A stretch of 5,326 nucleotides of DNA from positions 1-5,326 of the IMG/VR virus record IMGVR_UViG_2548877010_000005, one strand, 5' to 3'. Numbering within the stretch: position 1 is the stretch's first letter; the number at the start of each line of letters is the position of its first letter. Shown one piece after another: positions 3,001 through 5,326 of the stretch. The stretch comes from a virus. Lineage: Duplodnaviria > Heunggongvirae > Uroviricota > Caudoviricetes. Made by a program: the position numbers.

Positions 3001-5326
3001 TTCAAACCTAAGACTGGCAACAGAAGAGCAGAATGCAAGAAACATTGTAGGGAATAGATTAAACACATCCGGTGCAATTGGAGTGTCTTGGTATAAGCCA
3101 ACTGGCAGGTGGAAGTCTTATGTTGGTTATAAAAATAAGACAATATCGTTAGGGTATTTCGATAGCAAAGAAGATGCAGCATTCATAGCAGCACTAGCAA
3201 GAAAGAAACTATATGGAACTTATGCGAGTAAAGCACTTAATTGCGAGCATGAGCTTTTATCTCAATTTAATAATGATGAGGATAAACTTGCGGAATATCT
3301 TAAGGAAAAATATAAAAGGACTCGAAAGCGTGTTAAAAAAAGATAAAGGCCTGCTGGTAATCGCAGGCCTTTTTATTTGGGGGAGAGGGAAGTCATGAAT
3401 CTGGACAAGCAAGATGCACAAACTATTAGCTCATACATAAGGGCATCAAGACCAGATTACAAAGGTCCGGTATTCGTAGATTTATCTCGCCTTGAATAGA
3501 TTTACATGTGGAAAGCAAGGTTACTTACGCATTTTGTTATTCGAACGATGACTAGCAACATTACAAAACCAATGTAACTGGAAGAGGTGAATATGAGCAC
3601 ACTCGCAGACCTTATTCATGCCGATATGGCTGAAGATGGAGCAAGGCGTAATAGGTACTGGAAATCATCGAGCCTTCCAGTTTGTGAAAGATTCAATCAC
3701 AGGCCAAAACCAAAACGTAGCCGACGAGACAAAGTGTTGAAAAAACTCATGCAAATTAACATGGCTGGTTTTGTCAGATTCGTGAGTGAAACGACTAACG
3801 GTGATTGATATGGACGAATCAAGAAAGCAGTTTGAGGAATACGTTGCCAAAAAATTGAGATTACCATTCGAGATGATAACCGAGGCAAGAAATGGTGATA
3901 GGTACTTCGCATTTTCAAGCATGGATATTCGTCACTCCTTAAATGATTGGTGGGCTTTATGGCAGGCATCGCGAGCAGCTATTGAACTGGATATCGACTG
4001 GCCCGAATCGAATGACGACCTTTGGAAAGATGGTGAAGAAGGTGCTTATGCGATGGGTTATGAGGATGGGCGTGACAAAACGGTAATTGCAGTAATGAAA
4101 GCTATCAGAGCCGCTGGAATTAAAGAGAAGAATTTTCGATGAAGCAAACAATCTTCCTCCGAACTAAGCAACAACAGCAAGCTGCAATAAATGCCATCCT
4201 CGCAACACCACTCGATAAAGACAAGCCAGTCACCATCCGCATTACTGACTACAAGCGCAACCTTGACCAGAACGCAAAATTTCACGCGATGCTGGCGGAT
4301 ATCGCTCGTCAGGTTCAATGGTGCGGCAAATGGTTAAAACCAGAACAATGGAAGGTTTTGTTGATCAGCGGTCATGCAGTGGCAACAAAGCAGGAAGCTG
4401 ATGTTTTGCCCGGGCTTGAAGGCGAATACGTCAACATTCGCGAAAGCAGCGCGCAGATGAGTGTGAAGCGTATGGCAAGTCTGATTGAGTACACGACAGC
4501 ATGGGCTATTGGTCAGGGTGTCAGATTTACCGACAGGAGGTACGAATGAGACGACAGCGACGAAGTATCACCGACATAATCTGTGAAAACTGCAAATACC
4601 TTCCAACGAAACGCTCCAGAAATAAACCCAAGCCAATCCCAAAAGAATCTGACGTAAAAACCTTCAACTACACGGCTCACCTGTGGGATATCCGGTGGCT
4701 AAGACATCGTGCGAGGAATACAAGGGGGTTGACGTGATGATTTATCCGGGGCTATATTCCTCACACGCCAGCAAAATCTGGCGTCGGGATTGGCGTCCTG
4801 GATAGAGACCGCGACAGATACACGCCGCGAGCGTGTTTTTTATTGTCGTATGCACGCGCACATCTGAATTATGGTGGGCTGTGTGGGGGCGGAGAGATCC
4901 GCGCCGGTCGGTTTCCCGGTTACGCCAACCCTGCACAGTTCACCACCAGACGATTGGCGTCGTCGGTGGTGAGTTATTAAGAAACCACTCGAGGGCGTCA
5001 TTATGACAACTCAAATCTCTGTTGAAACTCTCTCCCCGATCACCCATAACCAGATTCCTGTTATTACCACCGAACTTTTGGCGCAGTTGTACGGTGCTGA
5101 AGTTAAGAACATTCAAAATAACTACGCCAGAAATGCTGAGCGCTTTATTGAAGGAAAGCATTTTTTCAAAGTGGCTGGCGATGCCCTGAAAAATTTGCGG
5201 GTTACTTTAAGTAACTCACAAAATTTGCAACCATCTTTAAGAGGTTTGCAAATTTCCCCCAAAACTCGCTCCCTCATCCTCTGGACAGAACGAGGCGCAG
5301 CCCGTCACGCCAAAATGCTCGAAACC

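Follow-up and report, generated by a model that had tools for sequence, protein, structure and literature searches.

Two small genes lie immediately upstream of ninB in a 5,326-nucleotide (nt) stretch of tailed-phage DNA (Caudoviricetes; IMG/VR record IMGVR_UViG_2548877010_000005, positions 1 to 5,326, hereafter the window), and the question they raise is whether they form a functional pair or are separate genes that share a neighbourhood. An earlier note on this DNA had described them as a coupled basic and acidic pair sitting where lambda has ren, and had considered both a toxin-antitoxin-like or regulatory module and, as a fallback, conserved nin-region genes of unknown function. Both open reading frames (ORF1 and ORF2) prove to be genuine protein-coding genes, conserved and belonging to catalogued families, and most phages with a member of one family do not have the other family next to it. 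We conclude that ORF1 and ORF2 are probably two independent accessory genes of a lambdoid prophage of the Shiga toxin 2 (Stx2) type, located within the nin region in a mosaic slot bounded by the replication genes and ninB.

ORF1 runs from an ATG at 3593 to a TGA at 3806-3808 and encodes 71 amino acids (aa) with a pI of 10.35 (15 K+R against 8 D+E), while ORF2 runs from an ATG at 3810 to a TGA at 4140-4142 and encodes 110 aa with a pI of 4.93 (22 D+E against 17 K+R, 5 Trp). Between the two genes lies a single base (3809), and at the other end of ORF2 its stop codon shares the sequence ATGA with the ninB start (ATG 4139-4141). The lengths, the junctions and the contrast between a basic and an acidic, tryptophan-rich product given in the earlier note are thus confirmed. 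The same note had found neither protein assignable to a family; this has to be corrected, as ORF1 belongs to Pfam DUF7301 and ORF2 to the family named Phage_phiTE_015 in Pfam (PF26207), i.e. phrog_343.

ORF1 matches the DUF7301 model (PF23975) with 108.6 bits (E 1.6e-31; the gathering score is 27 bits), residues 1-64 aligning to positions 1-64 of the 65 in the model, and it also matches phrog_1785 (4.7e-35). The residues that are invariant in an alignment of 44 members (Y22, S26, L28, E32, R45 and D46) are all present in ORF1, as is P29, which at least 90% of the members share, and the length falls in the size range of the family (about 65-82 aa). The median ratio of nonsynonymous to synonymous substitution rates (dN/dS) in the family is 0.36 (277 pairs), which indicates purifying selection. 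The AlphaFold2 (AF2) model, with a predicted local distance difference test score (pLDDT) of 82.5, folds as a helical hairpin whose loop is basic (helices at 4-25 and 45-69, a short one at 30-35, loop HRPKPKRSRR). RefSeq/PGAP places the start of this protein at Met12, which leaves 60 aa (locus positions 3735-3917). We regard the 71-aa form as the likelier one, since the family as a whole conserves residues 1-11 (MST.A.L..AD; 3593-3625 in the window) and a Shine-Dalgarno-like sequence precedes 3593. ORF1 resembles other PF23975/phrog_1785 members (ST64T Orf-69, phage 1717 gp30 and an unannotated 71-aa ORF of 933W) in size, invariant residues and genomic slot, and nothing sets it apart from this family, which has no known function.

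ORF2 matches phrog_343 over residues 1-110 (9.3e-30). Its assignment to PF26207 rests on homologs, phrog_343 and the RefSeq name, the Pfam set that was scanned being without the PF26207 model: a precomputed PF26207 match is on record for all 120 listed ORF2 homologs, one of them 96% identical, and in a 100% identical Escherichia coli chromosome stretch in RefSeq the two genes are named 'DUF7301 family protein' and 'phiTE_015 family protein'. An exhaustive HMMER search with an ORF2 profile found 947 cluster representatives (50% identity) at E<=0.001 among 1.84 billion, almost solely stand-alone proteins of 80-160 aa; a few members carry an N-terminal extension, and no Pfam domain was found in these extensions. 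The AF2 model of ORF2 (pLDDT 72) contains helices at 2-16, 20-25, 41-54 and 84-101, and residues 71-84 are predicted to be disordered (pLDDT <50). The DNA is 100% identical to that of the Stx2 phages vB_EcoS_phi330 and Stx2a_WGPS6 and 98.9% identical to that of phage 1717 (gp30, gp31); the genes are therefore already catalogued, with identical copies annotated in published Stx2 phages, and the phi330, Stx2a_WGPS6 and 1717 records list them as hypothetical proteins.

The label 'similar to P22 EaD', given to such a protein in phage Gally, was considered for ORF2 and rejected, as only the C-terminal ...AGIKVKG tail is alike (E 0.3). The product of P22 eaD (locus positions 24906-25499) ends in ...RAGIKVKG, like the constant tail of phiTE_015 proteins, a weak likeness in hmmsearch (E 0.3) that may explain the Gally label. 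Among other members of the family, some have an N-terminal Cys-rich extension (CxxC...CxC), the N-terminal module is repeated internally in one, and two family genes stand in tandem in a Cronobacter prophage (locus positions 4001-4628).

Whether the two families travel together was assessed on IMG/VR viral contigs, each family serving in turn as the anchor; six-frame ORFs were scanned with hidden Markov models (HMMs) of both families and of NinB, and DUF7301 loci were located by a degenerate DNA pattern that gave 1 real match among species-representative genomes and at least 120 in IMG/VR. No DUF7301 gene lay within about 4 kb in 56 out of 80 phiTE_015 contigs; it was directly upstream in 15, about 470 nt upstream in 5 and only downstream in 1, and the flanks were too short to judge in 3. 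The reciprocal count gave a similar picture: 38 out of 81 DUF7301 contigs, with adequate flanks, had no phiTE_015 gene, 21 had it directly downstream as in the window, and 18 had it upstream at a distance of about 140 nt, which is the arrangement of phage 933W. DUF7301 is in turn translationally coupled, via conserved junctions, to many different downstream genes in other phages, namely many phiTE_015 variants, Lar-like genes (PF14354), phrog_9493, phrog_18758, phrog_5603 and small membrane-type proteins. Frequent separate occurrence, reversed order and varied partners rule out an obligate two-gene unit.

These counts bear directly on the idea of a dedicated two-part module, either a toxin-antitoxin pair or a basic/acidic heterodimer in which each part needs the other. 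Like type II toxin-antitoxin pairs, ORF1 and ORF2 are small abutting genes whose products have opposite net charge, and the 1-nt gap fits such a module. A type II module requires that its genes be inherited as a unit, however, and the contig counts show two families that are often apart, the opposite order in phages of the 933W type, where about 140 nt lie between the genes, and a DUF7301 gene with many alternative partners. Neither protein has homology to a toxin or antitoxin family in Pfam, NCBIfam or PADLOC. No sigma-70-like promoter site was found at 3373-3592, upstream of ORF1, by a consensus scan, which may miss a weak promoter. The pair is embedded in a long phage operon of coupled genes: the ninB stop and the ninE start again share an ATGA, so tight packing is a property of the whole operon and not specific to these two genes. 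The distribution is phage-restricted, with matches to the two genes in only 22 and 10 of 72,556 plasmid records, nearly all of them non-mobilizable. Parts of the 550-bp stretch occur in 728 of the 5,426 complete E. coli genomes, and the pair is complete in only 66. We consider a dedicated module highly improbable, and the toxin-antitoxin-like suggestion of the earlier note is not upheld.

Several points weigh against our reading. A DUF7301 gene followed by a phiTE_015 gene is found in three diverged subfamilies of DUF7301, i.e. the window type, the ST64T type (64%/32% identity) and the SPN9CC type (43%/33%), and in one extra genome, Enterobacter adelaidei; that the order is kept despite 43-64% and about 32% identity speaks for the two-part module as well, and a looser, facultative functional link between the genes is possible. 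The co-occurrence counts come from partly interrelated contigs and carry no phylogenetic correction. Moreover, the roles that we propose below for the acidic cassette of ORF2 and the basic hairpin of ORF1 derive from composition, predicted structure and neighbourhood only.

It is instructive to compare the slot in named phages. Intact relatives have a replication initiator, a DnaB-type helicase (or O, P and ren), variable small genes, ninB and ninE, and then continue to Q. The ninR region is subject to gene shuffling and takes up unrelated genes of unknown function (PMC4118853). In 933W the order is ren, L0091 (phiTE_015), the unannotated DUF7301 gene, a Lar-like gene and ninB, and in ST64T it is Orf-90, Orf-69 (DUF7301), Orf-86 (phiTE_015), Orf-98 and ninB. 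Other genes precede the phiTE_015 gene in mEp213 and Sf6, the match of H-19B DNA to the window begins only at the ORF2 start, a phiTE_015 gene is missing from Klebsiella phage phi5.2 and PhiR12_1, both of which carry DUF7301, and Cronobacter phages have both with at least 1.4 kb of other genes between them. In P22 the slot is filled by the 26-aa ninA alone, with a terminator inside that gene, and the left end of the slot bears a tR2-type terminator in the records of both Sf6 and P22. The fallback of the earlier note is therefore borne out, as both families occupy a ninR-type slot between the replication genes and ninB in many lambdoid phages. Its phrase that the genes sit where lambda has ren is right about the position and wrong if it implies replacement: ren occurs together with DUF7301 in 933W and PhiR12_1, and in 933W also with phiTE_015, so the two families are additions to the slot. 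The Pfam scan gave no Ren match for ORF1 or ORF2.

Annotation of this slot is uneven. The 71-aa DUF7301 paralog of 933W (locus positions 2824-3039) is overlapped in another frame by L0092 (2861-3220), and in phage 1717, which has two DUF7301 genes, an unannotated 71-aa paralog (locus positions 5776-5991) is overlapped out of frame by an over-long 'Lar-like' coding sequence (CDS; 5813-6238). A DUF7301-Lar fusion in these two phages was considered and rejected, because the two ORFs do not share a frame and the start annotated for the long 'Lar-like' CDS is too early; the true start is probably just after the DUF7301 stop in both.

The conservation of phiTE_015 proteins follows a pattern of its own. 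Three short constant blocks (aa 1-9, 47-59 and 99-107 in ORF2) are separated by two variable regions, V1 and V2. One position (S54) is invariant and 17 more are kept in at least 90% of the sequences, and ORF2 has all of them, along with the family motifs S-R-x-x-F-E (N-terminal), W-x-x-W-Q-A-S-R-x-A-x-E (core) and I-x-x-A-G-x-K-x-K (C-terminal). The blocks MDESRKQFE, WQASRAAIE and IRAAGIK.K are shared with the PF26207/phrog_343 proteins Sf6 gene 48, 933W L0091, ST64T Orf-86 and phage 1717 gp31. V2 exists in dozens of unrelated versions across the family, nearly all of them acidic (median net charge -6 in 172 members, measured from after WQASR to the C-terminal AAG motif). The DNA of the constant C-terminal tail overlaps the start and the ribosome-binding region of ninB. 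Mosaic breakpoints fall at two places: the H-19B and mEp213 DNA matches begin exactly at 3810, the ORF2 start, and further breakpoints cluster inside the core block at 3958-3985, where 933W-type matches start (3958) and Sf6-type matches end (3982-3985). ORF2 of the window combines an Sf6-like V1 and first half with a 933W-like V2 of the LDIDWPE type; it is in the usual place of the family, directly upstream of ninB, and differs from other members by this particular V1/V2 combination. The family has no known function.

Breakpoints at conserved blocks raise the question of whether the conservation concerns protein at all, or whether the ORFs are not functional proteins and the blocks act at the DNA level, as boundary sequences by which mosaic recombination between phages is promoted. 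The positions of the breakpoints, at the ORF2 start and at 3958-3985, would suit this explanation, and the Sf6 record does annotate 'boundary sequences' in the region. It is nevertheless scarcely credible, given a median dN/dS of 0.36 in DUF7301, amino-acid motifs of both families that are kept across Escherichia, Salmonella, Klebsiella, Cronobacter and Hafnia at 30-50% identity, and confident helical AF2 models for both proteins. A boundary role is in any case compatible with a protein role, so the breakpoints are no argument against real proteins.

Searches for function gave families and helical models, and no fold match or function for either protein. NCBIfam and PADLOC had no match for either, profile searches against PDB sequences gave nothing at E<=1, and Foldseek gave no match at E<=0.001 for both models against PDB or for the ORF2 model against BFVD. 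Compared with anti-restriction and anti-defence proteins (Lar, Ral, and DNA mimics of the Ocr/ArdA type), there was no family, PDB-sequence or fold likeness to a characterised member. Membrane or lysis-type peptides were rejected, as neither protein has a hydrophobic segment (top 19-residue Kyte-Doolittle mean 0.63). A full-text literature search found no paper on the function of the DUF7301 or phiTE_015 families.

Even though these searches were negative, the organisation of ORF2 allows some speculation. The constant frame with a variable cassette suggests a scaffold that presents a variable binding surface, and hence an arms-race role, and fits plain modular shuffling at conserved linkers equally well. 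It is conceivable, if doubtful, that ORF2 is a small helical scaffold whose mostly acidic hypervariable cassette binds a variable partner of the host or of a rival phage, and that it would act as a counter-defence or host-takeover factor. We suggest just as tentatively that ORF1, a small basic protein modelled as a helical hairpin, may be a binder of nucleic acid or of a host protein; its pairing with many different downstream genes argues that it acts on its own. A broader speculation, which we regard as rather unlikely, is that phiTE_015 proteins are a widespread class of scaffolds with swappable cassettes, that the cassettes serve as decoys or inhibitors against varying host-defence or rival-phage targets, that the stretch from DUF7301 to ninB is a hotspot of counter-defence cargo which also holds Lar, and that an abutting DUF7301 protein might cooperate with ORF2.

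A different partner for ORF2 is suggested by its position. Partners of single-stranded DNA-binding protein (SSB) typically recognise acidic/aromatic tails. The phiTE_015 gene is followed by ninB in 79 out of 80 contigs, with 15 nt or less between the HMM matches in 61, and it adjoins ninB in Hafnia prophages too. The Orf protein encoded by ninB binds SSB and single-stranded DNA (PMC4118853). ORF2 could thus be an accessory factor of the NinB/Orf recombination mediator, its acidic, aromatic-rich cassette contacting e.g. NinB or SSB, and would then have no part in counter-defence. We find this unlikely, because NinB occurs without phiTE_015 in PhiR12_1 and a Klebsiella phage, and in P22 with only ninA in the slot; two NinB types with only about 35% identity to each other are found behind one and the same cassette type; other genes intervene between phiTE_015 and ninB in 933W, Sf6 and Cronobacter; in one contig the gene after phiTE_015 has no NinB Pfam match on record; and a hypervariable cassette poorly suits a conserved partner.

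Two independent accessory genes, from families that move independently of each other in a cargo slot where other phages have Lar, remain our preferred reading, and they can be set beside other occupants of the slot. Lar-like proteins (PF14354, phrog_599) of 933W-type Stx phages are likewise small early accessory proteins of this slot, in other phages encoded immediately 3' of a DUF7301 gene and immediately 5' of ninB, but they carry a Cys-rich zinc-ribbon motif that is missing from ORF1 and ORF2 and have no sequence similarity to either. Lambda Ren and P22 NinA, like ORF1 and ORF2, are encoded between the replication genes and ninB, in the non-essential nin region, and show no homology to them. 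By analogy with lambdoid organisation, in an intact phage both genes would be transcribed early in the rightward PR operon, after N-type antitermination through a tR2-type terminator, and would be translated as a coupled chain ORF1-ORF2-ninB-ninE. Lytic growth in the laboratory would presumably not require either gene, just as it does not require the region removed by the lambda nin5 deletion.

In practical terms this is a routine annotation result, in which two 'hypothetical' genes gain family names and the toxin-antitoxin reading finds no support. If the idea of a variable cassette were true, Shiga-toxin phages and other lambdoid phages would hold, in phiTE_015, a large family of candidates for counter-defence, and the slot upstream of ninB would be a place to seek more counter-defence genes.

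Table 1. Features of the 5,326-nt window, with nucleotide positions, strand (+ or minus) and supporting evidence
Feature	Position	Strand	Evidence or remark
Integrase gene	1-975	minus	
IS1203/IS629, insertion sequence (IS) of the IS3 family	~1393-2703	minus	
ALIL frameshift pseudoknot of IS1203/IS629	2254-2370		
HNH-AP2 endonuclease gene	2735-3346		low GC
Terminator-like hairpin	3345-3372	both	10-bp stem, 6 GC pairs, T-runs on both strands
34-aa ORF (MNLDKQDAQ...SRLE)	3395-3499	+	phrog_21123, 2.9e-20, function unknown; CDS in phage phi330
Shine-Dalgarno-like GGAAGAGG	3580-3587	+	5 nt before ORF1 ATG, read from sequence
ORF1, DUF7301 family	3593-3808	+	PF23975 1.6e-31; phrog_1785 4.7e-35; AF2 model
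ORF2, Phage_phiTE_015 family	3810-4142	+	phrog_343 9.3e-30; PF26207 via homologs; RefSeq name; AF2 model
ORF2 constant N-terminal block MDESRKQFE, aa 1-9	3810-3836	+	S4, F8, E9 in >=90% of sequences
ORF2 variable region V1, aa 10-46	3837-3947	+	no conserved columns; family net charge -8 to +5
ORF2 constant core block WWALWQASRAAIE, aa 47-59	3948-3986	+	S54 invariant; W48, W51, Q52, A53, R55, A57, E59 in >=90%
ORF2 variable acidic cassette V2 LDIDWPESNDDLWKDGEEGAYAMGYEDGRDKTVIAVMKA, aa 60-98	3987-4103	+	
ORF2 constant C-terminal tail IRAAGIKEKNFR and stop codon	4104-4142	+	I99, A102, G103, K105, K107 in >=90%
ninB (Orf recombination mediator, 136 aa)	4139-4549	+	PF05772, 1e-55
ninE (63 aa)	4546-4737	+	NinE family protein in RefSeq annotation of identical stretch
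isrK/C4 antisense-RNA region	4752-4950		Rfam

The left part of the window differs from that of relatives, which have the order helicase, IS1203, HNH. The integrase gene here directly adjoins IS1203/IS629, a junction that was found in no complete E. coli genome (the best match covers 74% of the window and breaks at about 1330-1393). Judged from the sequence, the stretch 1-2703 looks like an IS-mediated rearrangement or deletion which removed the phage early region. Since IS1203 and the integrase gene stand in place of the upstream early region, expression of ORF1 and ORF2 in this strain is uncertain.

The GC content of the HNH-AP2 gene is 34%, as opposed to about 43-49% in the genes around it. 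A promoter-like site is present at 2702-2730, and the stretch 2735-3372 looks like a self-contained homing-endonuclease insert. The terminator-like hairpin lies directly 3' of this gene and forms the left edge of the stretch leading to ORF1. The 34-aa ORF that follows aligns to the first 34 of the 60 positions of the phrog_21123 profile and may be a truncated remnant. Downstream of the operon segment, Rfam matches are found just 3' of ninE (isrK Hfq-binding RNA 74.7 bits, C4 antisense RNA 66.7 and a1/b1 targets 48.4), and in the identical RefSeq stretch the next annotated CDS after ninE is an ORF6N-domain pseudogene.

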